A DNA stretch of 38,085 nucleotides, taken from the NCBI GenBank assembly GCA_964195005.1, contig CAXMOO010000059.1, positions 1 to 38,085 on the forward strand. The letters run 5' to 3'. Made by a program: the position numbers and the translations under genes. This stretch comes from an uncultured Gammaproteobacteria bacterium. GTDB lineage: Bacteria; Actinomycetota; Acidimicrobiia; Spongiisociales; SHLN01. Below, piece by piece: positions 18,311 to 37,401 of this stretch. Position 1 is the first letter of the stretch, and each line of letters opens with the position of its first letter. The notes below the pieces were generated by a model. It made no database searches and had not been told where the DNA came from. It saw only the letters and a program-made list of their open reading frames with translations.

Positions 18311-18332
18311 TGTCACACCGCACCGTTACCAT
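18311..18332 (+). promoter_or_regulatory. RecA-NDp/PafBC-like DNA-damage promoter of the nurA operon
   Basis: TGTCAC-N10-TACCAT, ending 8 nt before the nurA ATG. Confidence 0.7.
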
Positions 18333-18340
18333 CTCTTCCA

Positions 18341-19282
18341 ATGGCTCGCCTCTATGTCGAGGAATGGTCGCCGGAGTACGGTGCCTCGGTTGATACTGAT
18401 GAGTCGCTCGCGCCCAGCGAGGGTGAGGTCGATGTCACTGTTGAGCAGGCTTCGCCGTGGCATCCCGTCGACGGCGTCGATGACGGATTCCCGGCGATTG
18501 CATTTGTCGATGGGATCAGGCGGGTGGACGCCCGGCTGACCATCGATGATCCCGCGGTCGGGCCCACGCCCGGGATCTGTGGTTCCTTTGCCGCCGGTGC
18601 CGCGGTGTGGCGCAGGGAGCCGCTGGCGACCGACGTGGAGGCGGTCCGGGTGCAGCGGCTTGCCATCTTCACCGGCGGAGCCACCGCCGAGCTTCCCGAG
18701 CTGGGGTACGGCCTCAGCTACGAGATCGAATCGGTTGCTGAGTCCGATCCGGGCCTGCTCATTTCCCACTTTCACACGCAGATGCGCCGCACGGAGGCTG
18801 AAATCGCCCTCGAACTGGCGCGGTCCGGTTACTTCGTGGTCGCCGACGGCCCGATTTCCGAGCTGGCGGCGGAATCGGTGGTGGGGTATATCAAGAGTCA
18901 TCGGGTTTCCTATCTGCCGCAAGATGTGATGCCGATCATGGCCCGGCTCGAGCCCGGCCAGCGGACGCCGCTTTTTGGCATGCCGAGTTACAAGCGTTAC
19001 TCCTGGTACCAGCGATTGAGTCGTCCGGCCGGCGGCCACAGCTGGTCGGGAGTGGTCCGGTGTGAGGCACCGCAGTCTCTTGGCCTCGAACGAGCGGTGG
19101 TCCTGGCCAACCGCACAGCGGCACTGTTGCCCCGCTTCCGCTCTGAGCCGCACATCGATCCTCGCGCTCCGCAGAACCTGGTTCCGATCGGTGCGCTGGA
19201 ACGCCAGCTCCGGGCCCGGCTTGGCGATCGAGACCTGATCTACCGGGCTCTACGGGCCGCGACCATGGGCGTGCCGGTGTGA
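18341..19282 (+). CDS. nurA: NurA-family nuclease
   Basis: Motifs AFVDGIRRVDAR, VVADGP, GYIKSH and DPRAPQNLVPIGALE. Lies directly upstream of herA. Confidence 0.8.
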   Translation: MARLYVEEWSPEYGASVDTDESLAPSEGEVDVTVEQASPWHPVDGVDDGFPAIAFVDGIRRVDARLTIDDPAVGPTPGICGSFAAGAAVWRREPLATDVEAVRVQRLAIFTGGATAELPELGYGLSYEIESVAESDPGLLISHFHTQMRRTEAEIALELARSGYFVVADGPISELAAESVVGYIKSHRVSYLPQDVMPIMARLEPGQRTPLFGMPSYKRYSWYQRLSRPAGGHSWSGVVRCEAPQSLGLERAVVLANRTAALLPRFRSEPHIDPRAPQNLVPIGALERQLRARLGDRDLIYRALRAATMGVPV

Positions 19283-19316
19283 GGGCCATAATGGGCTCGC
19301 CCTACGCGCTGGAGGG

Positions 19317-21044
19317 ATGTTGGTGAAGAGCAAAAAGGGGGTCGGGCGTGTGCTCGGCACCCAGCACACTTCGACGCGTGAATTCCGCGTTGTCCTCGAG
19401 GACGACGAGTATCTGCAGCTCGACGACCTGGTTGTTGTCACCACCGGAGTGCCCCAGCAGGGCGAAGTGAAGACCTACGGCATCGTCACAGAAGTCGAGG
19501 CAATTTTCGAAGGTGCCACCTTCGAATCCGACACCCACCGAATAGCCGCAGAAGGCATTCTCCCCGCAGCCAAGGTGCGCTCAGCGCAGGTGGCGATCAC
19601 CCGGATCGACCCCGAGCTCTGGGTGTCGCCTGACCCGGGAGAGGTGGTCGAGCGCGCGACGGGAGCAGAACGGGATAAGGCGCTGTACAGGGACGAGATG
19701 GGACGAGCGCTGGCCATTGGCCTGGGTCGCGACGGCGAGCCGGTGTTTGTCGATCTCGACTTCTTTGACGGGCGCAAGGGCGGCCACATGTCGGTTTCCG
19801 GGATCAGTGGCGTGGCCACCAAGACCAGCTTCGCGTTGTTCTTCCTGCGCATGCTCACGGCGAAGCCGGAGGTGGTCGGCGAAGGCGCCGCCAACATGCG
19901 AGTGCTGGTTTTCAACGTCAAGGGAGAGGACCTCCTCTGGCTGGATAAGCACAACAAGGATTTCGACGAGACTGCTGCCAAGGGCTGGGATCGGCTGGGC
20001 GTCAAGCCGACCCCGTTCGAGTCGGTGGGGTTCTGGGCCCCGCCCCGCCCCAAATCGGGTGATGTGGTGGTCCCGGACATCAGCGGTCGTCAAGAAGGAG
20101 TCGCCGCCTTCGCCTGGACGCCTCGCGAGTTCGTCGATGAGGGGTTGCTGCGCTTCCTGTTCACCGACGCCTCTGACACCCGCAACCAGATACCTTTCGT
20201 TGAGGAACGGGTCGAGGCCCAGCTCAAGCGTTATGCAGTCGACGTGGCCGGCGAGCCCGGGGCAGTGGTTCTTCGTGATCCGGTCGAGGGTCACAAGCCG
20301 GGTGACGTTGTCACCCCGGGCCGGGGTGAGATGGTGATCCGGGACCTCAAGAGCCTGGCTGAGGCAATCGAGGAATTCGTCGACCCGGCCGACGACGAGC
20401 CAGACCAACGCTGGACCGGTCGAGTGCAACCGGGGACGGTTTCGGCATTCATGCGGCGGCTGCACGCCGCCACCAACCGTCTCGGACATCTGATCAGGTC
20501 GGGGGAGAGCCGACGCATCGACCGCTTGGCAGCTCAGGTGACTGTGGTGGGAATCCAATCCCTCCACGATCTCGGCCAGAGATTTGTTGTGGGTGCTCTT
20601 CTGGCTGAGACCTTTGCTGAAAAGGAGCGCAGCGGTCGGCGCTTCCCGTTGTCGGTGATCGTCCTCGACGAGCTCAACAAGTATGCGCCCCGCGATGGCA
20701 CCAGCCCCATCAAGGACATGCTGATCGATATTGCTCAAAGGGGCCGCTCTCTTGGCGTGCTCCTGGTGGGGGCTCAACAGACTGCCTCCCGCGTGGCGTC
20801 CGAGGTCATGGAAAACGCCGCTCTCAAGGTGGCGGGACGGCTTGATGCCGCTGAAGCCGAGCGGGCCGAATATGGCTGGATGCTCCCGTCCACCCGGGCT
20901 CGGGCCCGGCTCTTGAAGCCGGGGACGATGATTTTGAGCCAGCCGGCGATTCCGCTTCCCCTGGTGGTTGACTTCCCGTTCCCGCCCTGGGCCACACGCC
21001 GCGAAGAAGTCGTCGAGGAGGGCGACCCCTTCGAAGGGCTGTGA
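19317..21044 (+). CDS. herA: HerA-family ATPase/DNA translocase
   Basis: N-terminal HAS-barrel-like region, variant Walker A SGISGVATKTS, FNVKGEDL, Walker B IVLDELNKYAP and RGRSLGV..GAQQ. Confidence 0.85.
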   Translation: MLVKSKKGVGRVLGTQHTSTREFRVVLEDDEYLQLDDLVVVTTGVPQQGEVKTYGIVTEVEAIFEGATFESDTHRIAAEGILPAAKVRSAQVAITRIDPELWVSPDPGEVVERATGAERDKALYRDEMGRALAIGLGRDGEPVFVDLDFFDGRKGGHMSVSGISGVATKTSFALFFLRMLTAKPEVVGEGAANMRVLVFNVKGEDLLWLDKHNKDFDETAAKGWDRLGVKPTPFESVGFWAPPRPKSGDVVVPDISGRQEGVAAFAWTPREFVDEGLLRFLFTDASDTRNQIPFVEERVEAQLKRYAVDVAGEPGAVVLRDPVEGHKPGDVVTPGRGEMVIRDLKSLAEAIEEFVDPADDEPDQRWTGRVQPGTVSAFMRRLHAATNRLGHLIRSGESRRIDRLAAQVTVVGIQSLHDLGQRFVVGALLAETFAEKERSGRRFPLSVIVLDELNKYAPRDGTSPIKDMLIDIAQRGRSLGVLLVGAQQTASRVASEVMENAALKVAGRLDAAEAERAEYGWMLPSTRARARLLKPGTMILSQPAIPLPLVVDFPFPPWATRREEVVEEGDPFEGL

Positions 21045-22213
21045 TGCGGATCCTCCACACGTCTGACTGGCACGTCGGAAAGAGGCTCGGACGCTATGAC
21101 CGCCTTGAAGAAGTGGTCGCCACCATCTCCGAGGTCGCCGGGATTGCCACCTCCGAAAGCGTCGACCTGGTGGTGCACTCGGGCGACCTGTTCGATCGGC
21201 CGTTCCCGCCCATCGACGCCCTACGGGTGGCGCTCGACGGTCTGGTCAGTCTGACCGGAGAGGGCTCGCGTCCGGTCGTAGTGGTCGCAGGCAACCACGA
21301 CTCCGGTGACCTGTTCGAAGCTTTGGCCCCTTTCCTCGCCGGGTGGGGCATCTATCTGATTGGCTGGATCAAGCCCCCGGCCGACGGCGGGGTCTTCGAG
21401 CTCGACACCGCGTCAGGTCGTGCAGTCGTGGCCGGCTTGCCGTTCCTGCGGGAAGGCCATGTGGTCGACTTCATGGCCGATACCGATCGGTGGTATGGGC
21501 AGTATGCAGAGCGGATCCGCCGCCTCACGGAGGTTTATTCGGATCACCTGGTCGAGACGGCGGGGACCGACGCGGTGTCGCTGCTCGTCGCTCACTTCAT
21601 GGTTACGGGAGCAAGGGTGGGCGGCCATGGCGCACCCCGCGGCGAACGGGAGCTCCACATGGGAGAGGCGTACGCCGCCGGTGAGGGGGCGATCCCCGCC
21701 TCGCTGAGCTATGTCGCCATGGGTCACATCCACGCTCCCCAGCCCGTGCCAGGGGCCAACGTACCCGCCGAATACGCCGGCTCCCTTCTCGAACTCGACT
21801 TCGGCGAGGCCGGTGAGCAGAAGCGGGTGGTAATCGTCGATGCCGAGCCGGGGCGTCCAGCGAGGGTCACAAGCGTGCCACTGAGTACCGGCCGGCGGTT
21901 GGTGCGAGCCGCCGGCACCTGGGACGAGCTGGCGGACCGCACCGACCTGGACGATTTCTATCTGGATCTAGCCGTGGACACGGAAGGACCCGAGCCGGGG
22001 CTCGGCGCCCAGGCGGTGGAGCGCTTTCCATACCTCGTCAAGGTGACGGCCGTCTACGAACGGCCCGAATTGGAAGAGGTGTCGCGTGGCCAGCTTCCCT
22101 GGGACCAGGTGTATGCCGAGTTTCGTGAACGCGAACGGGGTGAGCCTGCTTCCGAGGAGCTGCTGGCGACCTTTCGCGAGGTGTCGGACGAGGTGGAACA
22201 TGCGACCCCTTGA
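21041..22213 (+). CDS. sbcD: SbcD/Mre11-family nuclease
   Basis: Phosphoesterase motifs HTSDWHVG, GDLFD, GNHD, AHF and MGHIH. GTGA overlap with herA. Confidence 0.93.
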   Translation: MMRILHTSDWHVGKRLGRYDRLEEVVATISEVAGIATSESVDLVVHSGDLFDRPFPPIDALRVALDGLVSLTGEGSRPVVVVAGNHDSGDLFEALAPFLAGWGIYLIGWIKPPADGGVFELDTASGRAVVAGLPFLREGHVVDFMADTDRWYGQYAERIRRLTEVYSDHLVETAGTDAVSLLVAHFMVTGARVGGHGAPRGERELHMGEAYAAGEGAIPASLSYVAMGHIHAPQPVPGANVPAEYAGSLLELDFGEAGEQKRVVIVDAEPGRPARVTSVPLSTGRRLVRAAGTWDELADRTDLDDFYLDLAVDTEGPEPGLGAQAVERFPYLVKVTAVYERPELEEVSRGQLPWDQVYAEFRERERGEPASEELLATFREVSDEVEHATP

Positions 22214-24713
22214 GCTGACCCTGAAAGGCTTCCAGTCGTACGCCGACCAACAAACCTTCGATTTCCGGGATCGGCGGTTGGTAGGAATAGTCGGCCCGAT
22301 CGGCGCCGGCAAGTCGTCCTTGCTGGATGGTATCGCCTTCGCCCTATACGGTCGGACTCCCCGAGCCGGCAAGTCGACTAGAGGGCTCATCAATCAGCGC
22401 CAGGGCTCGGCCCACGTCGAGCTGTGGTTCCAGGTAGAAGGTGAGACCTGGCGAGCCGTGCGAGCCCTGCGGCGCAAGGGACAGAGCGCCCACAACCTGT
22501 ACCGGTACGCCGGTGATGAGCCGGGGGCCGAGCGACTTGAGGAATTTACCGGAGAGAAGCTGGTGACCGCCAGGGTATCCGAGTTGCTCGGCCTCGATTT
22601 CGAAGGTTTCAGTCGGTCGGTTTTTCTTGCGCAGAACCGCTTTGCCGACTTCCTGGAGGCAACGGCCAGTCAGCGCGATGTGGTTCTCAAAGGAGTATTT
22701 GCGCTCGACCGGCTCGATCGCATGGAGGAGGTTGCCAAAACTCGTCGCGATGGCCTTCGTGCCGAACTGGCGGATCTCGAGCGGTTGCGCGGTGAGGTCG
22801 AGGCAGATCGGTCTCCTCTGAAAGAGGCTCGGGCGGCTCTCAAAAAGGCCACTACGACGCTTGCTGAGATCGAGTCACATCGCGAAAACGCACGCCGGCT
22901 CGAGGTGGCGGCTGCCGAGGCGCTCGGTGATGGCGAGCGGGCTCAGTCGCGTCTCGCTGAGCTCTCCGGCCTGGCGGCGCAGCTCCCGGCCAGGGACAAG
23001 ACAGGCGTGCTACTCGATCGGGCTGCAGCCGGGAGCAAAGGCCAGGCCGAGGCCGAGGCGGCATTGGCCGACGCCACCAAAGGCCTGGAGGTCGCCCGTC
23101 GGCATCAGGCGCAAACGGTCAAGAAGACGGGTGGGCCGGCGGCTCTGGAGCGAGTTGGTGGCCGGCTGGAACAACTGGCCGCTCTCGAGAAGCGAGCCAA
23201 AGACGCAGCCGCCGGCTCGAAAACAGCTCGAGCCGGCCTGGAGCGAGCGCAGAAGGATGCGGCCAAAGCGGAAAAGGATCTCGCATCCAGCTTGGAGGCG
23301 CAGACGGTCGCGGCCGTCGCAGTGGAGTCGGCAGCTGAAGCCACCGCCACCGCAGAGGAGGCATGGCACAGGGCAACTCATGAAGCCGGCGCGCTGGCTC
23401 TTCGCGAGGGCCTAGTGGTCGGAGAGCCCTGTCCCGTCTGCGAGCAGACGGTTGTGGTGCCGCCGGGAGCCAAGAAAGCACCGAAAGCCGACCAGGTCGA
23501 CCGTGCCCTGGACCGGGCACGGAGGACGCTCGGCAAAGCGCAAGCCGTCAACACCGATGCCGCCACGGCTCACGCCACTGCGCTGGCCAGGGTGGAATCG
23601 ACCCACAAAGCCCACCTGGCGGCTGAACAGCACGATAAGGAAGCGCTTTCGGCCGAGGAGTCGCTGGCCGCCGAACGTCAAGGCATTTCCGATCAGCTCG
23701 AAAAGGCTGTCGGGAAGGAGAAGCCGTCTCAGGTCCTGGGACGATGGCGCTCCCAGTTGGACGAGGCCGATGCCCTCGTAGAGCTAAAAGTCGCCGCCGA
23801 GAACGCGACGAGGGATCACCTGGCAACAGAGCAGGCGGCACGTGCCGGGATGGGCTCAGAGTTAGTCCAGCTTGCCACCACGGTTGCCACTCTGGCCGGG
23901 CAGCTCGGCGGCGAGATCCGACCCGCGGCCGACGCTGCCGAGTTGTCCGACTCGCTCGATCAGCTCCGCAAGCTGTGGGAAGAGCGTTCGGCGGCGGCCC
24001 AGGATGAGCACAGGGCTTTTATCAAGCGAAGAGAAGAGGCTGAAACAGCAGTTGCCGGGATCCTCCAGCAGCTCGGCCTGACGCCTGGAATAACGTTGGC
24101 CGACGCGATCAAGAATGCCGGTGCCAATCAGGCGCGTCTCCAGGAGAGGGTCGAGACCCTGGAGGGTCGAGCGGAGCGGCTCGCCGAGGCGGAGAAGGGC
24201 TCGGCCGAAACGGTACAGGCGCTCAACCTCTACACGACACTTGCAGACGATCTGCTGCCCAGCCGCTTTCTCAAGTCTGTCCTCGATGAGGAGCGACGAT
24301 CGTTGGCCGCATTGGGGAGCGAGCACTTCGCTCGCATGACCAGGGGCCGCTATCGGTTCACGGAAGACGGCGCCTTCAACGTCATGGATCTCAGCGCCGC
24401 CGGGGTTGAGCGGAAGGCCGACACTCTATCGGGTGGAGAATCCTTCATTGCCTCGCTCGGATTGGCCCTGGCGCTTGCCGAGATGGTGACTCGTACCGGA
24501 GGCCGACTTGACGCTTTCTTCCTCGATGAGGGCTTCGGCTCCCTCGATCCCGAGCATCTCGAGTTGGCCATGGAGGGCATCGAGGCACTGGTCGGTGGCG
24601 ACCGGCTGGTAGTAGTCGTGAGTCACGTTCCCCAACTGCGCGAAAGGGTGGAAGACCTAATCGAGCTTGATAAGGACCCAACCACGGGGGATACCAGGGT
24701 CGTCCGGTCGTGA
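22200..24713 (+). CDS. sbcC: SbcC/Rad50 SMC-like ATPase
   Basis: ATG at 22200 ([14 protein letters not shown]), Walker [10 protein letters not shown], coiled coil with CPVC zinc hook, LSGGE signature and [10 protein letters not shown]. Confidence 0.93.
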
Positions 24714-25168
24714 TCCGGCCTCTCCTCAGGGGTGTGATAGTGGATGAGGAGCGAGTGTTGCTGACTCTGAGTCGTTTCGATTACGAGGTGTACTTGCTTC
24801 CGGGAGGAGAGCCACGAGCCGGCGAGTCGTCCTCGACCGCCCTCAGTCGCTATGTTCAAGAACAGACCGGGTACGAGGTAGCCGCTCATGAGCTCCTGTG
24901 GATCCGGGATCACACGACATCCAATCATGGGCTCTTGCTTAACCCACCGGGGTCGTATGTGGTCGAGCTCTTCTACAGATGCACCTTGAGCGGAGCGGCG
25001 GTAACGGTCGCGCCCGGCGGTGGGCCTCAACAGGTGGCCGTCGAGTGGGTCCCGGGCGACCGCCTTCCCAGCGTGGAGTTTCTGCCTAAGAGTTTGGTGG
25101 AACCGTTGGTGGCATATCTGGCAGATCGGAGCGTGATCCCGCCTGTGTATGTCGTCGAAGGCGCTTAG
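24710..25168 (+). CDS. Nudix-fold protein with a degenerate Nudix box
   Basis: LPGGEPRAGESSSTALSRYVQEQTGY. GTGA overlap with the sbcC stop. Confidence 0.75.
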   Translation: MIRPLLRGVIVDEERVLLTLSRFDYEVYLLPGGEPRAGESSSTALSRYVQEQTGYEVAAHELLWIRDHTTSNHGLLLNPPGSYVVELFYRCTLSGAAVTVAPGGGPQQVAVEWVPGDRLPSVEFLPKSLVEPLVAYLADRSVIPPVYVVEGA

Positions 25169-25228
25169 CGGCCCGTCGCACAATTAACGGGGTCGCCGGC
25201 CGACGCCGGGTCTACACTCCGGCGGCTC

Positions 25229-26314: not shown

Positions 26315-26320
26315 GCCCGC

Positions 26321-26458: not shown

Positions 26459-26566
26459 GGTTCCTGTATATAGCACGATGAGTGGTCGATCAGACAGGGC
26501 TTTTCGCCAAGCAGCGAAATGACATTCTGATGTCTAGTCATTCGTGACTATTGAAGGATGGTCCCT

Positions 26567-26593: not shown

Positions 26594-26600
26594 TTTGGGT

Positions 26601-27670: not shown

Positions 27671-28122
27671 GGGCCGTTGTGCAGAGGGTGTCTCAGGCCT
27701 CGGTCATGGAGGACGGAGTCGTTCGCGGCGAGATCGGCTCCGGGCTTCTGGTGCTGGTCGGCGTCGCCCCGGGCGACGAATCGGCCGACGTCGACGCATT
27801 AGCCGACAAGCTCGTGAACATTCGCCTGATGGCCGACACGGAGGGCAAGATGAATCGCTCAGTTCTGGAGTCGGGTGCGTCCATTCTTGTCGTGAGCCAA
27901 TTCACGCTCCAGGCCGATATTCGCAAGGGTCGGCGACCCTCATTCACTTCGGCCGCCGAGCCGGATTTGGCCGAACCTCTGATTGAGCGCCTGGCAGACC
28001 GCATCTCCGAAGTGGGCGTCCCCGTGTCCACCGGTGTCTTTGGAGCTCACATGGAGGTGGCGCTGGTCAACGACGGGCCGGTAACGCTGGTGATCGACGT
28101 TGCCAACGGCAAGGTGGCGTAG
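27667..28122 (+). CDS. dtd: D-aminoacyl-tRNA deacylase
   Basis: Motifs MRAVVQRV, SQFTL, KGRRPSF, FGAHMEV and NDGPVT. Confidence 0.96.
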   Translation: MRAVVQRVSQASVMEDGVVRGEIGSGLLVLVGVAPGDESADVDALADKLVNIRLMADTEGKMNRSVLESGASILVVSQFTLQADIRKGRRPSFTSAAEPDLAEPLIERLADRISEVGVPVSTGVFGAHMEVALVNDGPVTLVIDVANGKVA

Positions 28123-28142
28123 CAGGCTCCTGGGAACTGCGT

Positions 28143-28724
28143 CTAGGTGGCTCGTCTCAGGTCGGCGACGAACTTGGGGGCCGTTATCAGGAGCACACCC
28201 AACCCGAGTGCTACCAGGGCGACTCCGGTGTCGATGCCCCAGCCAACCGGCAAGTCGAGTGCCACCCAGGCGATGGTGGCGGCGGTGTAGAACGCCAGGC
28301 CCAACAAGGCCCCCTTGGCAGCTGATCCCATCAGCCGGGCCGTGCCTGCCATGAACGGGACCGCGACCACCAGGCCGAGGGGCCAAGCCGCCATCGTCAC
28401 TCCTCCCGCAACCCCGAGTCCCTTGCCGCCTCGAAACCGAAACCAGGGGTTGAGTATCTGCCCGCTGATGGCCGCCAGCCCGCCCGCCACCGCGCCTCCG
28501 CTGCCGACCAGTGCTAGGCCCAGCTGCACGGCGAGGAACCCTTTGAGGATGTCCACCAGCAAGACGGCTCCGGCCAGTTTCTTGCCCCCAACGACAAGGG
28601 CGTTGGCAGTGCCGGGGTTGCCCGTTCCCTCTGTCCGCAGGTTGTGGCCGACCGCCAGCGCCAGCAGATGAGCCGAGGGGATGGCCCCGAGGCCGAACCC
28701 GATGAGGAGTGCGGCGGCGGTCAC
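28143..28724 (-). CDS. plsY: PlsY-like membrane protein (divergent)
   Basis: Motifs GAIPS, GTGNPGTAN, DILKG and FRGGKG. GTGA overlap with the adnB stop. Confidence 0.7.
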   Translation of the reverse strand: MTAAALLIGFGLGAIPSAHLLALAVGHNLRTEGTGNPGTANALVVGGKKLAGAVLLVDILKGFLAVQLGLALVGSGGAVAGGLAAISGQILNPWFRFRGGKGLGVAGGVTMAAWPLGLVVAVPFMAGTARLMGSAAKGALLGLAFYTAATIAWVALDLPVGWGIDTGVALVALGLGVLLITAPKFVADLRRAT

Positions 28725-31700
28725 TCGAGCGCCTGGTTATCGGCGAGCCATTGCCGGCCCGGCTCGCAGAATTTGACGAAGTCACAATGACGACAGGCTT
28801 CCGACGGCTCGGGCTCGAAGCGTTCAGTGTTGATGTCTTCGAGAATCGTCGTGAGCCGTGACCGCGCCGTGTCCAGCCAACCCGTATCCACGGTCGTCGA
28901 CTCCTCTTCCAGTCCGTTCCCGAAGTAGGCGAAGGTAACTGCCAGTGAGTCGGGGCGGGACCCAAGGCTTCCCTCATCGGCAGCCACTCCGTACGCCTGC
29001 AACTGCACCTGACGGGCCGGGTCGGTCCGGTTACGCCCACTCTTGAAGTCCACGATCTCCCAGAAGTGGTCCTTCGTGTAGATGGCGTCGATCCTGCCTC
29101 TTATCCGGTTGTCGCCCATCTGCATCACAAACGGTCGTTCCACCCATGTCGGTTTGGTGGTAGCGAACCGTGACGCCTGAAAGGTCTCATATGAATCGGG
29201 GGAGGGCTCCTGCTCGTCCGGCACAAAATCATATGTGTCCTCATCGGCCACTTCGAGGGGTATGACTCCACGGTTGTGGAGCTCGATGCGGCGGTGCAGG
29301 TCGATGCCCGCCCGGAGCCAGGGTGCCGGCCGCCTGGGCAGGCGATCCACGTCGCTCCAGTAGAAGCGCTTAGGGCAGGTCGCATAGGTAACCAACGAGG
29401 ACACGGAGATCACGGTTGGGCCGTCCGGCTGTGCATCCTCGGGCTCGGGGAGCCCGCTAAGGATCAGTGATAGCTGTTCCACCTGGGCATCGTACGCCGT
29501 CGTGTCTGCGGCAGCTTCCCGGGGCCACTGGGGATCGGCCATCGTATCCAGCAGAGCTGCCTGCCATCCCTGGCCGAAGTGAGGGTCGGGCGCTACCACG
29601 CGAGGCGGGGCAGCTGAGGAGTCCGGCCTGGCGCCGGCATCTTCGCAATCGGCCAGGCGAGAGCTGATATCCAGATCATCGATTATCGAAAACAGGTCGC
29701 TGGGGCGTTTGGCTCTCTTCTGGCCGTACCAATGAGCTCCCGACACAACGAGGCGCTTCTTGGCCCTGGTCACTGCCACGTATGCCGTGCGCCATTCCTG
29801 ATCAGTGTGGAGGTCCCTGAGAGCGTCCTTGCGGGCGTCCGCGTCATCGGGATCGAGGGTGGGAAGGTGTTGGGCATCTAGCCGGGCGGTGAACGGCAGG
29901 CTGGCAGGCCGGGCAAACGGGTCGTCGAATGCCCGAGGACGGCTTGGGAACGTGTCGTTGACGACCGCCGGGAGGTACACAGAGTCCCATTCGAGCCCCT
30001 TGGCGCGGTGGGCTGTGATGAGCGTTACGGCGTCGCTGCTGGCGGCTGGAGCCAGGTCGAGCTCCTCGGCCGCCCGCTCGTCCACTAGCAGCGCCAGGTA
30101 TTCGAGGAAGGCGGTCAGGGAGGGGCGGCCTTCAAGCGGGCTCCACGCTTCGGCCAGATCGAGGAAGCGATAAAGGTTGAGGCGGGCACTGCGGCTGGCG
30201 CTTTCCTCGAGTGAATCGATCTCGATCCACACGCCCAAGCGATCGAGCACGCGGCGGCAAAGCTCGACCAGTGAGACGCCTTGCGCCTCTTCTACAAGGG
30301 TCGAGTGGAGAGAGCGAAACCGTTCCAATGCCGTGGTGGCTTCGGGGCGGGGGAGCTCTGTAACCTCCAGGATCGCCTCGAGAAGCGTAAATCCCGGGAC
30401 GTCGCCTTCATCGGAGGTCGTGCCATCCTGCTCCCGCACCCACTCCGCCGGGGGTACCAGGTCGCCGAACCCGAGCCCGAAGTGAGGCCCGAGCAAAATC
30501 CGCAACAGTGCCGGGCCATCGCTGGGATCTTCGAGAATCCGCAGCCACGACCACAGGTCGGTGACTTCGGGAACGTGAAGCAGGCCACCGAGGCTCACTA
30601 CCTGGATCGGCACACCCGCCTCAGCCAGTACCTGGCGGATCAGCGGGATCTGGGCGTTCTTTCGGAAAATCAATGCGATATCGCGCCACTCCAGACCGGC
30701 CTCATGCGCCGAAATGATCTCGGCTGCCAGCCAGTCGGCCTCCTCACCGGCGGTGCGAAACCAGGCGGTCGCCACTTCTCCCTCGCCTGCGGTGTCGAGC
30801 GCCCGTAAGGGCTCGCGGTTTGCTCGCCGCGAGATCTGCTCCGCGACGGTGTTGGCGACCGTGACGATGTGATGACCCGATCGGCGGTTGAGTGACAGCT
30901 GGAGAGTGGGGCTTGGAGTGCCGCCCGGCCCGGGGAAGTGCTCGGGGAATCTCGCGAAGTTCTCGAGTGAGGCCCCACGCCACTCGTAGATGGTCTGGTC
31001 GGCGTCTCCCACAGCCGTGACCGGAAAGCCGTCGCCGAAGAGGGAGCTTAAAAGCTCGCGCTGGGCCGGGTTGGTGTCCTGGTACTCGTCGAGGAGGACC
31101 ACACCGAATCGCCCCCGTACTGCCGCGGCGACGGCGGGTTGCTCCACAACCAGCCGGTGGGCGAGGGCAATGAGGTCGCTGAAGTCGATCACGCCGAGCT
31201 GGTGCTTGAGCTTGCGGTAACGGGTGAGGGCCGCGAGCATCTCCGCTCGCCTCTCTCCGACGTCTCCTTCCCCGCCCGGCACCGATTCAGGGTCTCGAAG
31301 GTTATCGGCCAACTGCCCGGCCAGGGCAGCGAGCTCCTCTACTCGCTGTCCAGGGGCTGAGAGGTCGAGATGCTCGTAGGACCCGCCGCCCAACGCATCT
31401 CGCAAGAGCTGACGTACGAACCCCGGCGTCACCAGGCGGGCGGTGCGCTCAACGCCGACGTAGGCGCCGAATTCGAGAAGCAGATTGGCGGCGAAACCGT
31501 GATAGGTCGTCACCTCGACGTCGCCGGTATCCGTCAACTGTCCGGCCAGAGCAGCCAGCTCCTCGATCCGCTGGCGAAGCTCTTCCGAGGCCTTGTTGGT
31601 AAAGGTCACACCGAGCGCGCTTGCCACCTGGCCCGTGCCGAGGAGGTTGACGAGTCGCAGCGCCATCGTTGTCGTCTTGCCCGTGCCGGCCCCGGCGTTG

Positions 31701-31768
31701 ACCCGCAGGGGTCCCAACGGATGGTCGATCACCTGCTGCTGCTCGGGAGAAGGGTCGAATGTCATCAC
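28721..31768 (-). CDS. adnB: AdnB-like UvrD helicase fused to a PD-(D/E)XK nuclease
   Basis: AGAGTGKT, TFTNKA, DEYQD, GDADQTIYEWRGA, TAHRAKGLEW and YVAVTRA; nuclease motif GRIDA..DFKSG; CPKR...CRHCDFVKFC. Confidence 0.85.
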   Translation of the reverse strand: MMTFDPSPEQQQVIDHPLGPLRVNAGAGTGKTTTMALRLVNLLGTGQVASALGVTFTNKASEELRQRIEELAALAGQLTDTGDVEVTTYHGFAANLLLEFGAYVGVERTARLVTPGFVRQLLRDALGGGSYEHLDLSAPGQRVEELAALAGQLADNLRDPESVPGGEGDVGERRAEMLAALTRYRKLKHQLGVIDFSDLIALAHRLVVEQPAVAAAVRGRFGVVLLDEYQDTNPAQRELLSSLFGDGFPVTAVGDADQTIYEWRGASLENFARFPEHFPGPGGTPSPTLQLSLNRRSGHHIVTVANTVAEQISRRANREPLRALDTAGEGEVATAWFRTAGEEADWLAAEIISAHEAGLEWRDIALIFRKNAQIPLIRQVLAEAGVPIQVVSLGGLLHVPEVTDLWSWLRILEDPSDGPALLRILLGPHFGLGFGDLVPPAEWVREQDGTTSDEGDVPGFTLLEAILEVTELPRPEATTALERFRSLHSTLVEEAQGVSLVELCRRVLDRLGVWIEIDSLEESASRSARLNLYRFLDLAEAWSPLEGRPSLTAFLEYLALLVDERAAEELDLAPAASSDAVTLITAHRAKGLEWDSVYLPAVVNDTFPSRPRAFDDPFARPASLPFTARLDAQHLPTLDPDDADARKDALRDLHTDQEWRTAYVAVTRAKKRLVVSGAHWYGQKRAKRPSDLFSIIDDLDISSRLADCEDAGARPDSSAAPPRVVAPDPHFGQGWQAALLDTMADPQWPREAAADTTAYDAQVEQLSLILSGLPEPEDAQPDGPTVISVSSLVTYATCPKRFYWSDVDRLPRRPAPWLRAGIDLHRRIELHNRGVIPLEVADEDTYDFVPDEQEPSPDSYETFQASRFATTKPTWVERPFVMQMGDNRIRGRIDAIYTKDHFWEIVDFKSGRNRTDPARQVQLQAYGVAADEGSLGSRPDSLAVTFAYFGNGLEEESTTVDTGWLDTARSRLTTILEDINTERFEPEPSEACRHCDFVKFCEPGRQWLADNQALE

Positions 31769-34719
31769 GACTGGTATGCCATGTTTCCTTCAGGGAAAGC
31801 GGGGCAGACGAGCCTTACCGGGCAGCGGCCGCAGTGTTCGTTGGGGCGAGCAGGCCAATCGTCACTGTTGATGCCTTCTGCGACCGCCCGCAGTCTCTGC
31901 TCCACCCCTTCCAGGTTTTTCGGATCGAAGGGGATCATCCGCAACGACTTGCGGTCCGTCATCGCCACCATCCACAGTTCCCCGGCGTCCGGCAGCCCGT
32001 GACCCGTGAGCCCCGGGTCCTGACGGGCCGCGAGGATATAAAAGCCAAGCTGGAGGGATTCGGCGCCGTCGGCGTCAGTGACATTTCTCCCACCCGTCTT
32101 GTAGTCGACAATTCGCACCACTCCATCACCGGCCTCAATGCGATCCGCTCGCCCGAACCAGGCGACCTCGTCGATATTGAGACTCAGCGGTCGTTCGAGA
32201 TCAATGATCGAAGCCGGGCGGTCCGGCCAGTGTTTGTAAACGAACTCGAGTACCCGCTCGGCGCGTCGGCGCCATGGCTCGGACCAGGGAGACGGCCCGA
32301 ATCGGGTCGGATCCCATCGAGCCTCGAGGTGAGCCTGGGCCCGAGCTTCCGTCCCGTGCGGGAGACCGTTCTCGTGGGCGTCCCGTTCGGTTTGCTCGAG
32401 CACATCGTGGATCAGCGAGCCGAACTCCAGATGGGAGCTGGTTCCTTCCCGCACTCTCAGCCGCCGTTCGATCGCATACCGGCGCGGGCAGGTCTCGTAG
32501 GAATCCGCTTGACTCGGCGAGAGGCGCAGCACGGCGGGTTTCAACCCGCCCTCGGGCCCGGGCGGTTGGATGCCTGCGAACAGGGCTGGTTCGCGGAGGC
32601 CGTACTGTGGTCCGGTGGCCAGCGCGTGCAGGGCCGCCAGTCGATGCGGGGCTGTTACCTCGGGATCGGCGGCGATTCGGCGAAGCCAGGCTTCGGCTTG
32701 AGCCTGAGTAACCGGATGGTCGCCGCGGTCCGGTGGCGGCACGGGCCCCTCGGGGGCTACCCGGTGCAGGAAAGGGCTCGGTGCGCCAAGACCTTCGTCG
32801 ATCCCGCCGGCAGTAGCCGTCCAAATCACCTGCCGGTGAGCTCTCGTCATGGCGGTGTATGCGAGCCGCGTCTCCTCCTGCAGGCGAAACCGGCGGTAAG
32901 CGGCCGGGTCGGAGGGAAGGTGGGGAGACAAATGCCGGGTGCCGATCAGCGACTCCCGGGGGCGCAGGTCGGGGAAGACTCCGTCCACTGCATCAGCAAT
33001 GAAGACAACCTCGAACTCCAGCCCCTTCGACTGGTGCAGAGTCGTGATGGTTAGCCGGTCGGTGCCCTGATCCCGGAAATCGAGGAGTGGTTGAGCTTCG
33101 AAGCTTTCCTCGTCGGACCATCTCACGAAGTCGGCGAGGCTGGCGGCGCGATCTCGCTCGAAAAGCCTCGACAAGACCTGCGAGAGCGAGCTCCAGGCTG
33201 CCCGTTCCTCGGTGCGCCGCTGGTCAACGACGAGGTCGGCAAACTGGGGGAGTGTTTCCCACAACTTCCAGAAACCGTCGGCGGCAGGGGCGCTTGTGGC
33301 CCAGGTGGAGTCGGCGATGAGCTCACCCAGGCCTGCCGCGTCGGGGACATCCGCAACGATGACCTCCGGCCAGGCCCGCGGCGGGGCACCCCGGCTTCGC
33401 TCCAACCCCCGCACCTGTCCGATCGGTAGGCGAAACAGTGGTCCCAACAGGAGCCGGCGCAGTGCCAGATCAGCCTCACGGCCGCCGGACGTGGCGGCGG
33501 TGACGCAGTCAAAGACTGCGCGTACCGCGGGATGATCACTGAGTCGCGAATCCGGCTGCACGTGGGGTATGCCAAGGCGCTCCAGTGCCCGCGAGAGAGT
33601 TGGAAGAAACCGACGCTTGGAGCGGACGAATACGGCCATGTCTCGGAAGGGAAGCCCTGCGAGATGGAGGCCCTGTATCTCGGCCGCAACCCATTCCGCC
33701 TCTTCGCTTGACTGCTGAAACAGCACGGCTTCTACCGAGCCCACTCCGGACGCTGGGGTTACCGGGCCGGCGGCTCCGGGTAATTCGAGGCCGGAGGTGA
33801 GGCGGGCGGCGGCGTCGAGTATCGCTGCGGGGGTCCGGAACGAGGTTGTGAGGACCAGGCGCGATGCCGGCCTGCCATTTTGCGAGAACCTCTCGGGGAA
33901 TTGTTCCACATTGGCCAGGTCGGTCCCGCGAAAGCTGTAAATCGACTGATACGGATCTGCCGCCACTGTGAGGTTGGCTCCGCCGCTTACCAGGAGCTCC
34001 AGCAGGCGGGCTTGAGCGATTGTCGTGTCCTGATACTCGTCGACGAGCACGTAGCGAGCCCCTGCGGTCACTCTGTCCAATGTGGGGGCGTGGCCCAAAG
34101 CCTGTACCGCCGCGGCCTGCACCGTGCCGTAATCGATGCGGTTGCGTTCCTGCAGCCGGCGTCGGTAGCTGCGCAAGAATTCTGGTAGGGCCCGCCAATC
34201 GTCGCGGGCAAAGTCGGCTATCTCCTCGGGCCCAATGAGAAGCTCATTGCAGCGGAGTAGGAAGTCGGAAATTTCCTCGGCCAGCGTGCTGGTTTGTAGC
34301 AAGCCCCGGAACAGGACCGGCCACTGTGCCGGGTTCTCGGCAGCGAGGAGCGAACGGATAAGGAGTACGTATTCGAGCGATGTGAGCAAAGTGGGCATTC
34401 GCTCCCAGCCGAGGCTGTCTCCCCCGTGAGTTTCCAGCAGACGGAAGGCATATGAGTGGAACGTGGAAGTGTCCATCGCAGGTGTCGAACTCTGGGCGCC
34501 CTCCTCGAGTCGCCTTCGCAAGTCGGCGGATCCCCGTCGCGAGAAGCTCAACAACAGGATCTCGTCGGGGAGGGCGATCCCCTCAGCAACTAGATAGAGG
34601 GCTCGCCGAACCAAAAACTCGGTCTTGCCGGTTCCCGGACCTCCCACCACAAGTTGAGGTCCGTCGGTTTCGGCAGTCGCCGCCTCCCAATCGCCGGGGT
34701 TTACCCGGAGCTCAGCCAT
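31765..34719 (-). CDS. adnA: AdnA-like UvrD helicase fused to a PD-(D/E)XK nuclease
   Basis: ATG at 34719 (MAELRVNP), GGPGTGKT, DEYQD, DPYQSIYSFRG, TLHQSKGLEF and YTAMTRA; GRADRI..DYKTG; CPRR...CGRCPVRLVC. Confidence 0.85.
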   Translation of the reverse strand: MAELRVNPGDWEAATAETDGPQLVVGGPGTGKTEFLVRRALYLVAEGIALPDEILLLSFSRRGSADLRRRLEEGAQSSTPAMDTSTFHSYAFRLLETHGGDSLGWERMPTLLTSLEYVLLIRSLLAAENPAQWPVLFRGLLQTSTLAEEISDFLLRCNELLIGPEEIADFARDDWRALPEFLRSYRRRLQERNRIDYGTVQAAAVQALGHAPTLDRVTAGARYVLVDEYQDTTIAQARLLELLVSGGANLTVAADPYQSIYSFRGTDLANVEQFPERFSQNGRPASRLVLTTSFRTPAAILDAAARLTSGLELPGAAGPVTPASGVGSVEAVLFQQSSEEAEWVAAEIQGLHLAGLPFRDMAVFVRSKRRFLPTLSRALERLGIPHVQPDSRLSDHPAVRAVFDCVTAATSGGREADLALRRLLLGPLFRLPIGQVRGLERSRGAPPRAWPEVIVADVPDAAGLGELIADSTWATSAPAADGFWKLWETLPQFADLVVDQRRTEERAAWSSLSQVLSRLFERDRAASLADFVRWSDEESFEAQPLLDFRDQGTDRLTITTLHQSKGLEFEVVFIADAVDGVFPDLRPRESLIGTRHLSPHLPSDPAAYRRFRLQEETRLAYTAMTRAHRQVIWTATAGGIDEGLGAPSPFLHRVAPEGPVPPPDRGDHPVTQAQAEAWLRRIAADPEVTAPHRLAALHALATGPQYGLREPALFAGIQPPGPEGGLKPAVLRLSPSQADSYETCPRRYAIERRLRVREGTSSHLEFGSLIHDVLEQTERDAHENGLPHGTEARAQAHLEARWDPTRFGPSPWSEPWRRRAERVLEFVYKHWPDRPASIIDLERPLSLNIDEVAWFGRADRIEAGDGVVRIVDYKTGGRNVTDADGAESLQLGFYILAARQDPGLTGHGLPDAGELWMVAMTDRKSLRMIPFDPKNLEGVEQRLRAVAEGINSDDWPARPNEHCGRCPVRLVCPAFPEGNMAYQS

Positions 34720-34726
34720 ACCCGAC

Positions 34727-34748
34727 ACGGTACCCGCCGCTGGCGACA
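34727..34748 (-). promoter_or_regulatory. RecA-NDp/PafBC-like promoter of adnAB
   Basis: Minus strand reads TGTCGC-N10-TACCGT, ending 7 nt before the adnA ATG. Confidence 0.72.
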
Positions 34749-34757
34749 GATTTTCGC

Positions 34758-35213
34758 TCAGAGATCCAGTGATGGCTGGTGAGGCAGCAGGCTCCCATCG
34801 GCCCGAATGTGGGTGACGGCGAACCCGGCAGCCTCGAAGCGGGGGGCGAGGACGGACAGCCGGTGGCAACGGGTCGGTTCGGCCTCGGAACATAGCAGCA
34901 CCGTGGTCGCGCCCAGTGCCAGTGCAGATGCTTCGGTTACACCGGCTTCGAGCCGTTCCGGGGAGGAGATGGGGGGCTCTTTTCCCTCACGCATGGGCAG
35001 GCCGCCGAGGTGGTCCCCGAGCCATCGATAGGAGACCCCGGCGGTAGCCAATTCCTCGGCAAGGGTTTGTCTCGAATATTCGGGCACCCGGCTCGAGTAC
35101 GGCTTCGATCTCACGTCGATAACAGTGCGGATGCTGTGGGAGGCGACGATCCTGAGAAACTCATCGAAATCAAGAGCCCCATGACCAATAGTGAAGAGTG
35201 TCGGTTCCGTAAT
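34758..35213 (-). CDS. DUF488-family protein
   Basis: The frame upstream of the track start gives TLFTIGHG...VIDVRSKPYS, then YRWLGDHLGG and LLCSEAEPTRCHR. Proposed start is ATT at 35213, 7 nt after GGAGG. Confidence 0.82.
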   Translation of the reverse strand: MTEPTLFTIGHGALDFDEFLRIVASHSIRTVIDVRSKPYSSRVPEYSRQTLAEELATAGVSYRWLGDHLGGLPMREGKEPPISSPERLEAGVTEASALALGATTVLLCSEAEPTRCHRLSVLAPRFEAAGFAVTHIRADGSLLPHQPSLDL

Positions 35214-35259
35214 CTCACGACCTCCGCAAGCTAGATTGGCTGGACCAGGAGGAGGCTAT

Positions 35260-36543
35260 ATCAGCACAAGCTTCGGTGAAGAGAACCTCTGGGAACTGGA
35301 ATCCCCTCTTTACCGCGACGCTCTCGCTCAGTTGGATCGGGTGGCCGGGGTAATGGGCCTCGATGAGAATATTCACGCCCGGCTGCGGGTCCCGCAAAGA
35401 GCCACCGTCGTCAGCTTTCCGTTTCGCCGCGAGGGTTACTACGAAGTCCACACCGTCTTTGCTTACCGGGTACAGCATGTCTTGACGATGGGCCCGACCA
35501 AGGGCGGGATTCGCTATGCCGCCGATGTCAACCTCGGTGAAGTGGCTGCACTCGCCATGTTGATGACCTGGAAAACCGCTCTGGTGGAACTCCCCTTCGG
35601 CGGCGCCAAGGGGGGCGTGCGAATCGAGCCGATAGGCCTGACCCGGCCCGAGCTCCAGCGACTCACTCGCCGCTATACAGCCGAGTTGATCAACGTCATC
35701 GGCCCCGAGACCGACATACCCGCTCCCGACATGGGCACCAATGAGCAGGTCATGGCCTGGATCATGGATACCTATTCACAACATGTTGGTCATGCCACCC
35801 CGGGTGTCGTCACCGGTAAACCTCCGGCACTGGGTGGTTCTATCGCCAGGCGTGAAGCCACCGGGAGGGGACTTGTGAGCCTGCTTCCGGCAGCGGCCGC
35901 CCATGCCGGCGTAGACCTCGAAACCGCCCGGGCGGTGGTGCACGGGTTCGGGAACGTCGGGCAATACGCCGCCCTGGGCGCCCACGAGATGGGGATCAAA
36001 GTGGTGGCGATTTCGGACGTCACCGGTGGGATTCACAATGAGCAGGGCCTGGACATCCCCAAGGCGCGGGAGTGGGTGGACGAGAACGGCAACCTCGAGG
36101 GTTTTCCCAACGCCGAATATGTCAGCAACGAGGAGCTTTTCCATCTCGACTGTGAGATTCTGATCCCGGCCGCCGTCGGAGGAGTGATAACTCAGGAGAA
36201 TGCCGGAGGGATCAAAGCGAAGATGATTGTCGAAGGTGCCAACGGTCCCACTACGGTGGGGGCCGACGACATCCTGGGCGAAAAGGGCGTCTTCGTCGTC
36301 CCGGACATCCTCGCCAACGCGGGTGGTGTCACGGCTTCCTATTTCGAGTGGGTGCAGGACCTCCAGAACTATTTCTGGTCGGAAGGTGAGATCGTTGCCA
36401 GGCTGCGAGAGATCATGGGTCGGGCCTTCGACGAGGTTCTCCATATCTCCATTCACGAGGGTTATGACATGCGGACTGCGGCCCTGATCAAAGGGATCCG
36501 CCGGGTGGCTGAGGCCAAGCTCGCCCGCGGCGTTTACCCATAG
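35260..36543 (+). CDS. gdhA: Glu/Leu/Phe/Val dehydrogenase (glutamate dehydrogenase-like)
   Basis: Motifs GPTKGGIRY, MTWK, GGAKGG, DIPAPD, VTGKP, GFGNVG, EGANGP and NAGGV..SYFEW. Start uncertain: ATC 35260 after AGGAGGAGG, or TTG 35236. Confidence 0.9.
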   Translation: MSTSFGEENLWELESPLYRDALAQLDRVAGVMGLDENIHARLRVPQRATVVSFPFRREGYYEVHTVFAYRVQHVLTMGPTKGGIRYAADVNLGEVAALAMLMTWKTALVELPFGGAKGGVRIEPIGLTRPELQRLTRRYTAELINVIGPETDIPAPDMGTNEQVMAWIMDTYSQHVGHATPGVVTGKPPALGGSIARREATGRGLVSLLPAAAAHAGVDLETARAVVHGFGNVGQYAALGAHEMGIKVVAISDVTGGIHNEQGLDIPKAREWVDENGNLEGFPNAEYVSNEELFHLDCEILIPAAVGGVITQENAGGIKAKMIVEGANGPTTVGADDILGEKGVFVVPDILANAGGVTASYFEWVQDLQNYFWSEGEIVARLREIMGRAFDEVLHISIHEGYDMRTAALIKGIRRVAEAKLARGVYP

Positions 36544-36571
36544 CCGGGAGGCCTTAGGCCGGACTCGGGGC

Positions 36572-37372
36572 TCAAACCGGAATGGTTTCGGGGCGGCGGG
36601 CCATGTCGGGCGTCGGCTCGCCGGTGCCACCGAATGCCGGACAAATGCCCTGAAATGAGCACCAGTCACACAGCCGCGAAGGCCGGGGCGGGAAGGCTTC
36701 CTTTTCGATTGCCGCCTTGATGGCGGTCCACAACGCCTGAATCTGCCGTTCCATGGCGTCGAGTTGCTGTTCGGTCACCGCCAGGGAATAGAGGGTTGGG
36801 CCGTTCAGGTACAGCAAGCGAAGCTCAACGGGAGCCCGGCCAAAGTGACGCCGGGTGAGCAGGGCGTAGATCTTCAAAGCAAAGAAAGCCGGCAATGCAT
36901 AGCGCTCTGGGGGAGCCTTACCCGTCTTGTAGTCGGTGACCACCAAATCGCCGGCGGCGTCTTCGTCAATCCGATCGAGAATCCCCCGCACCGTCACATC
37001 CTGGACTTCTTCGATGAGGTCGAGCTCGCAATCCACGGGGTCGATCTTGGTGGGGTCCTCGACGGTGAAGTAGTTGGCGAGTAGCTCAAGGCTTTCGATT
37101 CCCCAAACCCGCTCTTCCTCCACCGTCTCGAACAAGTGGGTGTACTCCTCGTTACGTACCTCAGCCCATGCTTGCCGAAAGAGATCGAAGAGGCGCTCGG
37201 GTGTGCGCTCGCTCGCATCACCTCCAAAAAGGCGCTGCAACGCCAGGTGGGCGGTGGTTCCTCGTGCCTGGTAGATGGTGGCCGGTTCCATCAATCGGTC
37301 GATCGAGCGGAACTTGAAGAGCTGAGGGCATTGTTTGAAGTCGCTGAGCCTGCTGGGCGAAACCCGTTTCAT
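36572..37372 (-). CDS. RecB-family / Cas4-like PD-(D/E)XK exonuclease with four-Cys Fe-S motif
   Basis: SPSRLSDFKQCP, GTTAH, RGILDRID, DYKTG and LCDWCSFQGICP. ATG at 37372. Confidence 0.88.
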   Translation of the reverse strand: MKRVSPSRLSDFKQCPQLFKFRSIDRLMEPATIYQARGTTAHLALQRLFGGDASERTPERLFDLFRQAWAEVRNEEYTHLFETVEEERVWGIESLELLANYFTVEDPTKIDPVDCELDLIEEVQDVTVRGILDRIDEDAAGDLVVTDYKTGKAPPERYALPAFFALKIYALLTRRHFGRAPVELRLLYLNGPTLYSLAVTEQQLDAMERQIQALWTAIKAAIEKEAFPPRPSRLCDWCSFQGICPAFGGTGEPTPDMARRPETIPV

Positions 37373-37379
37373 GAGCTGC

Positions 37380-37401
37380 ACTATAAGGGGGGAGAGTGAC
37401 A
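37380..37401 (-). promoter_or_regulatory. RecA-NDp/PafBC-like promoter of the RecB-family exonuclease
   Basis: Minus strand reads TGTCAC-N10-TATAGT, ending 7 nt before ATG 37372. Confidence 0.72.

Follow-up and report, generated by a model that had tools for sequence, protein, structure and literature searches.

To our knowledge, the transcriptional activator PafBC has been studied almost only in mycobacteria; the RecA-NDp promoters reportedly go back to Gamulin in 2004. The published in vivo consensus of the PafBC site is tGTCgg(N10)tA(N3)T, lower case marking conservation of 50% or less (PMC8635444), and that study (Mueller et al., 2021) places the PafBC element at -23 to -28, in promoters with no -35 element, and describes the GTC triplet as strictly conserved across actinobacteria and read by R46 and R50 of M. 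smegmatis PafB. Among the targets, adnA and lhr are given as classic PafBC genes in PMC8682763, and sbcD as a gene of the M. smegmatis regulon in PMC11348249; single-stranded DNA (ssDNA) is described as activating PafBC in mycobacteria (PMC8635444; PMC11804915). A second related system is the herA-mre11-rad50-nurA operon of thermophilic archaea, which, according to PMC2288612 and PMC3326311, sets side by side the same four functions as the bacterial nurA-herA-sbcD-sbcC genes treated here. In this work we analysed a 38 kb stretch of DNA, contig C59 from the genome assembly of an uncultured Acidimicrobiia bacterium (G000), hereafter called the window. It carries three units of DNA end-processing genes, namely the nurA operon, adnA-adnB and a gene for a stand-alone RecB-like nuclease, each preceded by a predicted PafBC-type promoter.

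Results

Three end-processing units share one promoter geometry

Upstream of nurA, on the forward strand, the predicted PafBC-type hybrid promoter occupies 18311..18332 and reads TGTCAC-accgcaccgt-TACCAT, ending 8 nucleotides (nt) before the ATG at 18341. Its -26 element is TGTCAC at 18311-18316, with the GTC triplet at 18312-18314, and its -10 element is TACCAT at 18327-18332. On the reverse strand, the predicted promoter of adnA-adnB (34727..34748, TGTCGC-cagcggcggg-TACCGT) and that of the stand-alone nuclease gene (37380..37401, TGTCAC-tctcccccct-TATAGT) each end 7 nt before an ATG, at 34719 and 37372, respectively. At all three sites a GTC triplet lies within a -26 element whose hexamer stands 10 nt upstream of a canonical -10 (TACCAT, TACCGT, TATAGT), and no -35 consensus is present. 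A sequence-only reading of the window had drawn attention to this shared geometry before nurA, adnA and the RecB-family exonuclease gene and to its distance of 7-8 nt from the ATG; both observations hold. The same is true of its comparison with mycobacteria, inasmuch as the geometry equals the published PafBC consensus and adnA is a classic PafBC gene (PMC8635444 and PMC8682763).

Counted over both strands, TGTCRC-N10-TANNNT has three matches in the window, all of them at the sites named above, against 0.13 expected, and none of 100 shuffled sequences reached three. The looser pattern TGTC-N12-TANNNT finds the same three sites and no others (0.92 expected; three reached in 9 of 100 shuffles). 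Neither 847, ychF and the DUF368-type gene, which the sequence-only reading had listed as lacking the motif, nor any other non-repair gene of the window is preceded by the looser pattern. A scan for sigma-70 -35/-10 promoters between 18000 and 37600 returned 0 sites, with 2.5 expected. The start codons of the three units are backed by Pfam domains that begin at residue 3-7 of the short forms and by the proteins of relatives, which align from residue 1-3. Judging by the 8-nt gap between the -10 element and the ATG, the nurA mRNA is predicted to be leaderless or near-leaderless.

The motif is enriched across the genome at a single spacing

Because the pattern had been set after the sites had been seen, we ran a scan free of that bias, taking all 4096 hexamers at N10 before TANNNT through the whole genome (2.2 Mb in 223 contigs, 62% G+C, 84% complete). 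TGTCAC ranked second, with 13 sites observed and 1.13 expected, and was the top non-repeat hexamer; TGTCGC had 8 against 2.1 expected. The signal is specific to one spacing, since TGTCRC occurs at 21 sites at N10 and at 0-6 sites at each of the other spacings from 4 to 19. The looser TGTC-N12-TANNNT occupies 46 of the 6780 TANNNT positions in the genome.

The hexamer ranked first, CTAGTG (16 sites at this spacing, 0.5 expected), was ruled out as a regulon motif, being the end of two repeat families. These families are at least 60 nt long, have about 6-8 near-identical copies each and lie on contigs C6, C10, C19, C34, C40, C55, C67, C78, C87, C142, C149, C184, C216 and C223; they are probably the termini of either a mobile element or a repeated gene.

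The enrichment at repair genes that the sequence-only reading implied is borne out by the genes behind the TGTCRC sites. These include recA (start at 23 nt or more after the -10), the Lhr gene (GTG start 9 nt after the -10), a gene for a ComM-like Mg-chelatase-family ATPase (start 6 nt after the -10), an SSB-like gene and three identical copies of a DUF222 gene (C77:730, C61:143 and C221:64, all on the minus strand). The motif of the window thus recurs in the same genome at recA and lhr, which along with adnAB are established members of the PafBC regulon. Further sites precede genes for proteins of unknown type on C7, C129, C213 and on C180 and C94, the last two being paralogues, where the start lies 7 nt beyond the -10; for the 408-amino-acid (aa) C129 product the PDB has no match. 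One TGTCGG site precedes a weakly ComF-like gene. With a base other than T in first position, [ACG]GTC[AG][CG]-N10-TANNNT has 31 sites in the genome, of which only 4 are followed by a leaderless-type start.

The three DUF222 copies share the promoter ggttgTGTCGC-aggtgggtga-TAGGTT, and the gene family is multi-copy here. The REP13E12/DUF222-HNH genes of mycobacteria are likewise multi-copy, and DUF222-family genes are damage-induced in M. tuberculosis.

As an independent replicate we used G031, a complete one-contig genome from another family of the same order. Ten of its TGTC-N12-TANNNT sites have a start codon at 5-7 nt, and five of these stand before recA, uvrB, two DUF222 genes (one with HNH) and the same PD-(D/E)XK nuclease gene, so that the association is replicated there for recA, uvrB and DUF222. 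The other five precede an open reading frame (ORF) with an NrdR domain, a SIR2_2 protein, a DUF5131 protein and two unknowns. The SIR2_2 case (G031:C1:274921, plus strand, locus L198) is a leaderless-type TGTCAC site before a protein of 498 aa or more, which could be a defence-type gene under the same type of promoter.

The site upstream of nurA is deeply conserved

We compared 80 public loci with HerA proteins 73-97% identical to that of the window, 896,558 bases in total. Gene order is nearly invariant: nurA adjoins herA in 77 of the 80, and sbcD follows herA within about 500 nt in 76, three of the remainder ending too early and one having sbcD 3.7 kb away. In 73 loci nurA is present with 70 nt or more of DNA before it, and 69 of these carry YGTC-N12-TANNNT with a start codon 5-9 nt further on (46 with TGTC, L060 included, and 23 with CGTC). 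The four exceptions are L080 (spacing 8), L085 (spacing 9), L041 (CGCC for CGTC) and L096 (none). Over both strands of all 80 loci the pattern has 81 matches, of which 69 mark the nurA promoter and 12 fall at other places; from the background density, 0.03 matches would be expected at the promoter position. These loci are kin and not independent, yet HerA identity falls to 73% and the flanks cannot be aligned.

Anchored at the -10, a profile of 73 distinct nurA promoters has Y in 72, G in 72, T in 70 and C in 71. Upstream of the motif, information stays at or below 0.33 bits nearly everywhere, with one peak of 0.58 bits at position -24. The first motif base is C in about a third of the relatives, and bases 5-6 of the hexamer vary freely (AC, CC, AT, GG, GC, GT and others), whereas GTC is nearly invariant. 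The sequence-only reading had proposed a variant motif defined by C at the sixth base. We find no separate motif of that kind, because bases 5-6 are already lower case in the published consensus (PMC8635444) and vary in the relatives; only GTC is conserved.

Beyond TANNNT, the -10 hexamer is gene-specific in the relatives (TACCAT at nurA, TATAGT at the nuclease gene, TACCGT or TAGCCT at adnA), and the spacer after GTC is C-rich at nurA (aCaCCCC). Both features may reflect tuning of promoter strength or DNA shape.

A HerA orthologue, at E 1e-60 or better, turned up in 47 of 201 genomes surveyed across the phylum, a tally that includes G000 and six unpublished genomes; the orthologues are clustered in few families and were not found in several large ones. 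Outside the order there are 35 published matches, and for 20 of them we examined the upstream DNA; the rest are six that, at 73-77% identity, are similar to the loci above, and nine that rank low. Ten of the 20 are distant Actinomycetota with nurA before herA (NurA 35-42% identical), and in 9 of these the motif, with a start at 6-8 nt, precedes nurA, the single miss being G087. The ten distant loci without nurA upstream form a weak set, with a TGTC-type site 37-120 nt before herA in four, GGTC in three and nothing in three. With the motif kept before nurA by 69 of the 73 Acidimicrobiia loci and by 9 of the 10 distant ones, its link to this gene appears to be old. The sequence-only reading had pictured the operon as recruited by the motif; a local event of that sort does not fit this distribution.

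The genome encodes PafB and PafC

Only two WYL-domain matches exist in the genome, in tandem on contig C33. One is PafC, with HTH_PafC and WYL domains (309 aa); the second, cut off at the contig edge, is a C-terminal PafB fragment with WYL and WCX. The N-terminus of PafB lies at the end of contig C29, adjoining and divergent from a Pup-ligase-family gene. The two pieces overlap by 25 residues at 100% identity, and we therefore regard the split as a break in the assembly and not as a broken gene. The pafB and pafC genes on which the sequence-only reading depends are thus present as a pair, with the tandem order, the WYL architecture and the Pup locus, in a form where pafB runs across two contig ends.

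Over the part they share, a full-length PafB from the same genus is 96% identical to the one examined here. In its alignment with M. smegmatis PafB from the RNA polymerase-PafBC structure (7p5x_AY, E 2.9e-30), arginines fall at chain residues 46 and 50 of the M. smegmatis protein (AFRRMFERDK versus AFSRMFERDK). The same arginine-bearing stretch is found in the N-terminal fragment on C29.

The nuclease gene in the order

The stand-alone nuclease gene occurs in 59 of 61 genomes of the order, counting G000 and the unpublished G004 and G016; one complete copy is present in 58, and in G029 the gene is split over two contigs. TGTC-N12-TANNNT with a start at 6-8 nt precedes it in 24 of 27 published relatives from the order and in both unpublished ones.

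In many genomes of the order the nuclease gene is located directly upstream of adnA-adnB, on the same strand and with gaps of 12-430 nt. This suggests that nuclease-adnA-adnB forms a conserved three-gene end-resection cluster.

Gene content of the three units

The first unit begins with nurA (18341..19282, plus strand), encoding a NurA-type nuclease of 313 aa that matches NurA of PDB entry 7f6d (chain H, E 8e-19), with homology across 269 residues, as well as 1zup_A (E 7.5e-7). The Pfam NurA family (PF09376) gives only 13.1 bits against a gathering score of 21 (E 0.067), so the Pfam model misses this bacterial branch. herA (19317..21044, plus strand) encodes a HerA-type hexameric ATPase/translocase of 575 aa homologous over its full length to 7f6d_B (E 4.3e-123), residues 7-569 aligning to 13-605. 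Its matches to the HerA proteins of other solved assemblies (8xau, 8wiv) are weak (E 0.03-0.3). No Pfam or NCBIfam family recognises the HerA of the window, and NCBIfam likewise misses its NurA.

The start of sbcD (21041..22213, plus strand) overlaps the herA stop. Its product is an Mre11-like nuclease of 390 aa with a Metallophos domain that scores 140.3 bits with TIGR00619 sbcd (cut-off 77.65). sbcC (22200..24713, plus strand) overlaps the end of sbcD by 14 nt and encodes a Rad50-like ATPase of 837 aa; the start, at the ATG at 22200, was assigned from the sequence. AAA_23, SMC_N and SbcC_Walker_B match it above their cut-offs, and TIGR00618 sbcc gives 218.9, below its cut-off of 478.5. Together the two genes have the hallmark of SbcCD, a tandem of phosphoesterase and ABC-type ATPase with coiled coil. 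NurA, HerA, SbcD and SbcC presumably act together in DNA-end resection.

A NUDIX hydrolase gene (24710..25168, plus strand; Pfam NUDIX) overlaps the sbcC stop and is probably the last operon gene in this genus. It follows sbcC in only 7 of the 80 loci, all close relatives (L023-L025, L027-L029), and is on that account best seen as a recent addition to the operon.

In the second unit, on the minus strand, adnA (31765..34719, 984 aa) and adnB (28721..31768, 1015 aa) each encode a UvrD-like helicase with a PD-(D/E)XK nuclease domain, C-terminal in AdnA, as judged from Pfam and PDB matches, and adnB overlaps the adnA stop. The best PDB matches of the first product are chains A of the AdnAB entries 7sjr and 6ppj (residues 19-979), and those of the second are chains B of 6ppu, 6ppr and 7sjr (E 3e-90); the tandem thus has a first subunit like AdnA and a second like AdnB of the mycobacterial entries. 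The third unit (36572..37372, minus strand) is the stand-alone PD-(D/E)XK, RecB/Cas4-like nuclease gene, whose 266-aa product matches PDDEXK_1 (E 1.7e-38) and resembles the AdnAB nuclease domain (6ppu_A, E 5e-7). Between it and adnA, on the plus strand, lies a glutamate dehydrogenase gene (35191-36543). A 366-aa ORF with no family match (27940-29040, minus strand) shares about 320 nt with the 3' end of adnB.

Relation to LexA and the SOS response

None of the three window promoters contains an SOS-like GAAC-N4-GTTC box. recA has such a box (type GAAC-RTRT-GTTCGAT) some 60 nt ahead of its PafBC-type site, and others occur at a few further places in the genome. The layout at recA recalls the dual control of mycobacterial recA (review PMC8223512); mycobacterial adnA is exclusively PafBC-dependent according to PMC8682763. 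The C180 and C94 paralogues (C180:495-529, minus; C94:5096-5130, plus), which have weak helix-turn-helix (HTH) hints and a TGTCAC-N10-TACTAT site, show a perfect GAAC-N4-GTTC overlapping the ATG, suggesting dual control by PafBC and LexA.

LexA itself was not found in our 84%-complete assembly, and it is present in all 60 other genomes of the order. The idea of a lineage without LexA, in which PafBC would be the sole damage regulator, was rejected on this ground.

Discussion

Weighing the readings

The motif and its geometry, its genome-wide specificity and deep conservation, a PafB/PafC pair with the DNA-reading arginines, and the identities of the genes downstream make it, in our judgement, very probable that the three sites are PafBC-dependent hybrid promoters of this Acidimicrobiia bacterium. 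The central proposal of the sequence-only reading, a predicted PafBC-type regulon that includes nurA-herA-sbcDC, is supported by the genome-wide enrichment, the regulator pair and the conservation.

Several observations weigh against this conclusion. At adnA, nGTC-N12-TANNNT within 60 nt of the start is found in 14 of 29 loci, which, once two unpublished loci (both negative) and one without upstream DNA are set aside, is 14 of 26 assessable published ones. In G000, 7 of the 21 TGTCRC sites have no evident link to repair, are farther from a start or precede only short ORFs. They comprise sites at a gene for an extracytoplasmic function (ECF) sigma factor (C53), 59 nt away, a glyoxalase/bleomycin-resistance-type gene at 30 nt and an aminotransferase gene at 12 nt, as well as C177, C77:3285 and C100, which are followed by short ORFs or none, and C213. 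In G031 the pattern TGTC-N12-TANNNT has 18 sites against 28 for a reversed control; the loose pattern being no more frequent than its control, only the subset with a start at 5-7 nt is informative there. Because the pafB gene of G000 falls on two contig ends, we take its intactness from the nearly identical same-genus copy. Three RNA-labelled marine-sediment runs (word share 0.05) gave short contigs that come from relatives (90-99% alike) and are silent on starts, strand and level, and a single 233-nt contig, from a run of uncertain type, covers 18302-18534; none of these contigs is evidence either way.

The adnA result has a further side. Six of its 12 negatives (G001, G005, G017, G027, G047 and G057) have the nuclease gene 78-429 nt ahead of adnA in the same orientation, and in the four examined at that position (G005, G027, G047 and G057) the motif is present before the nuclease gene. 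As these upstream genes bear the motif, the ancestral arrangement looks like nuclease-adnA-adnB under one or two such promoters.

That the sites are instead constitutive housekeeping promoters of leaderless genes, with YGTC a lineage-specific upstream element that sigma-A or a general factor reads and that is unrelated to PafBC, appears unlikely. Their -10 hexamers are indeed ordinary TANNNT, many actinobacterial genes are leaderless, and a tuning of basal strength could explain the preference for TACCAT at nurA and for TATAGT at the nuclease gene. However, the element is found at few of the TANNNT positions (46 among 6780), is clustered at recombination and repair genes and is absent before the non-repair genes of the window, and a 10-nt gap does not leave enough room for sigma domain 4 to recognise a -35 (PMC8635444).

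A damage or stress regulon governed by some other regulator, such as an HTH protein or an alternative sigma factor of the ECF type, seems very unlikely to us. The ECF sigma gene on C53 does lie downstream of a TGTCAC site, and further regulators may be missing from an assembly that is 84% complete. Against this, the motif agrees with the site established by experiment for PafBC, both in sequence and spacing and in its target genes; the arginines with which PafB contacts GTC are kept, and PafB and PafC are the sole WYL proteins found. ECF promoters, moreover, have their own -35 and -10 elements about 16-17 nt apart and not a TANNNT at 10 nt. Chance co-occurrence of a short degenerate pattern has a negligible probability: the pattern was set after the sites had been seen and its loose form, with 7 fixed bases, reaches three in 9 of 100 shuffles, but TGTCRC never does, the all-hexamer and spacing scans concur, and the presence of the motif at nurA in 69 of 73 relatives, with 0.03 expected, refutes it.

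Proposed mechanism

Under PafBC control, and by analogy with mycobacteria, each site would combine a normal -10 (TANNNT) with a -26 element in place of a -35, its GTC being read by the winged helix of PafB. PafBC would be switched on by ssDNA, bind at the sites and insert between the -26 element DNA and domain 4 of sigma-A ('sigma adaptation'). RNA polymerase would then start about 7 nt after the -10, at the ATG or 1-2 nt before it, yielding leaderless mRNAs; if a transcription start 7 nt after the -10 is assumed, the hexamers occupy -28 to -23. The transcripts would cover nurA-herA-sbcD-sbcC, possibly with the NUDIX gene, adnA-adnB and the RecB-like nuclease gene. Given the shared promoter type, we propose that these units are co-induced with recA, lhr and other regulon members upon DNA damage.

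All three units make or process resected ends, which renders a positive loop plausible: resection would yield ssDNA, ssDNA would activate PafBC, and PafBC would supply more resection enzymes. We lean slightly towards a broader statement, namely that the ssDNA-sensing activator PafBC drives every double-strand-break end-processing machine, from AdnAB and the stand-alone RecB-like nuclease to an archaeal-style NurA-HerA-SbcD-SbcC operon of four genes, in Acidimicrobiia and in the Actinomycetota that bear the cluster, that the link is ancestral, and that NurA-HerA is here a damage-induced repair machine and not a phage-defence module.

Implications and comparison with known systems

What NurA-HerA does in bacteria is, as far as we know, poorly defined. 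A promoter of the damage-response type that is deeply conserved before nurA-herA-sbcDC speaks, as regulatory evidence, for a role in break repair, and it leads to a prediction, that clastogens induce the operon in dependence on pafBC and on the GTC triplet. More generally, the core of the PafBC site (GTC, N12, TANNNT) and the reading residues of PafB are kept in a deep-branching class, which makes regulon prediction from sequence alone feasible in uncultured lineages.

Published work already covers the regulator, the motif and how widely it occurs in actinobacteria, as well as adnAB, lhr, recA and sbcD as regulon members; what is new therefore lies in the predicted members and the host class. 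That nurA-herA and the RecB-like nuclease gene are predicted members, in an Acidimicrobiia host, is well supported; it adds no new kind of system. The sequence-only reading had taken the whole link to be undescribed. This appears to stand for NurA-HerA and does not for sbcD, already reported as a PafBC-regulon gene of M. smegmatis (PMC11348249). Our literature search, whose reach ended before the supplementary regulon tables of earlier PafBC studies, found no paper joining PafBC and NurA. For PafBC and HerA it found no linking paper either, the matches looked at containing only the name 'Heran', and it found none joining PafBC and Acidimicrobiia.

The LexA/SOS response is likewise a DNA-damage regulon, from which the window units differ in that they would be activated and not released from repression. 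With the archaeal operon the locus contrasts in its bacterial host, in the order nurA-herA-sbcD-sbcC, in HerA and NurA of the bacterial (Deinococcus) type and in its predicted control by a bacterial activator-type promoter. The NurA-HerA complex of Deinococcus radiodurans (PDB 7f6d) is homologous in both proteins, whose genes are adjacent here; in the window, however, the pair is joined in an operon with sbcDC and has a PafBC-type promoter in front. The closest match is the mycobacterial PafBC regulon. It has the same 22-nt architecture (a -26 element containing GTC, N10, TANNNT and no -35), the same placing of the PafB/PafC pair by a Pup-ligase-family gene, a recA gene that additionally has an SOS-like box, and shared targets in recA, adnAB, lhr and sbcD, along with DUF222-family genes. 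The system described here differs from it in having an uncultured Acidimicrobiia host, in preferring AC or GC at bases 5-6, where M. smegmatis has gg, and in the orientation of pafB, which diverges from the neighbouring Pup-ligase-family gene and does not run in the same direction. It also differs in the reach of the predicted regulon, which takes in nurA-herA and the stand-alone RecB-like nuclease.

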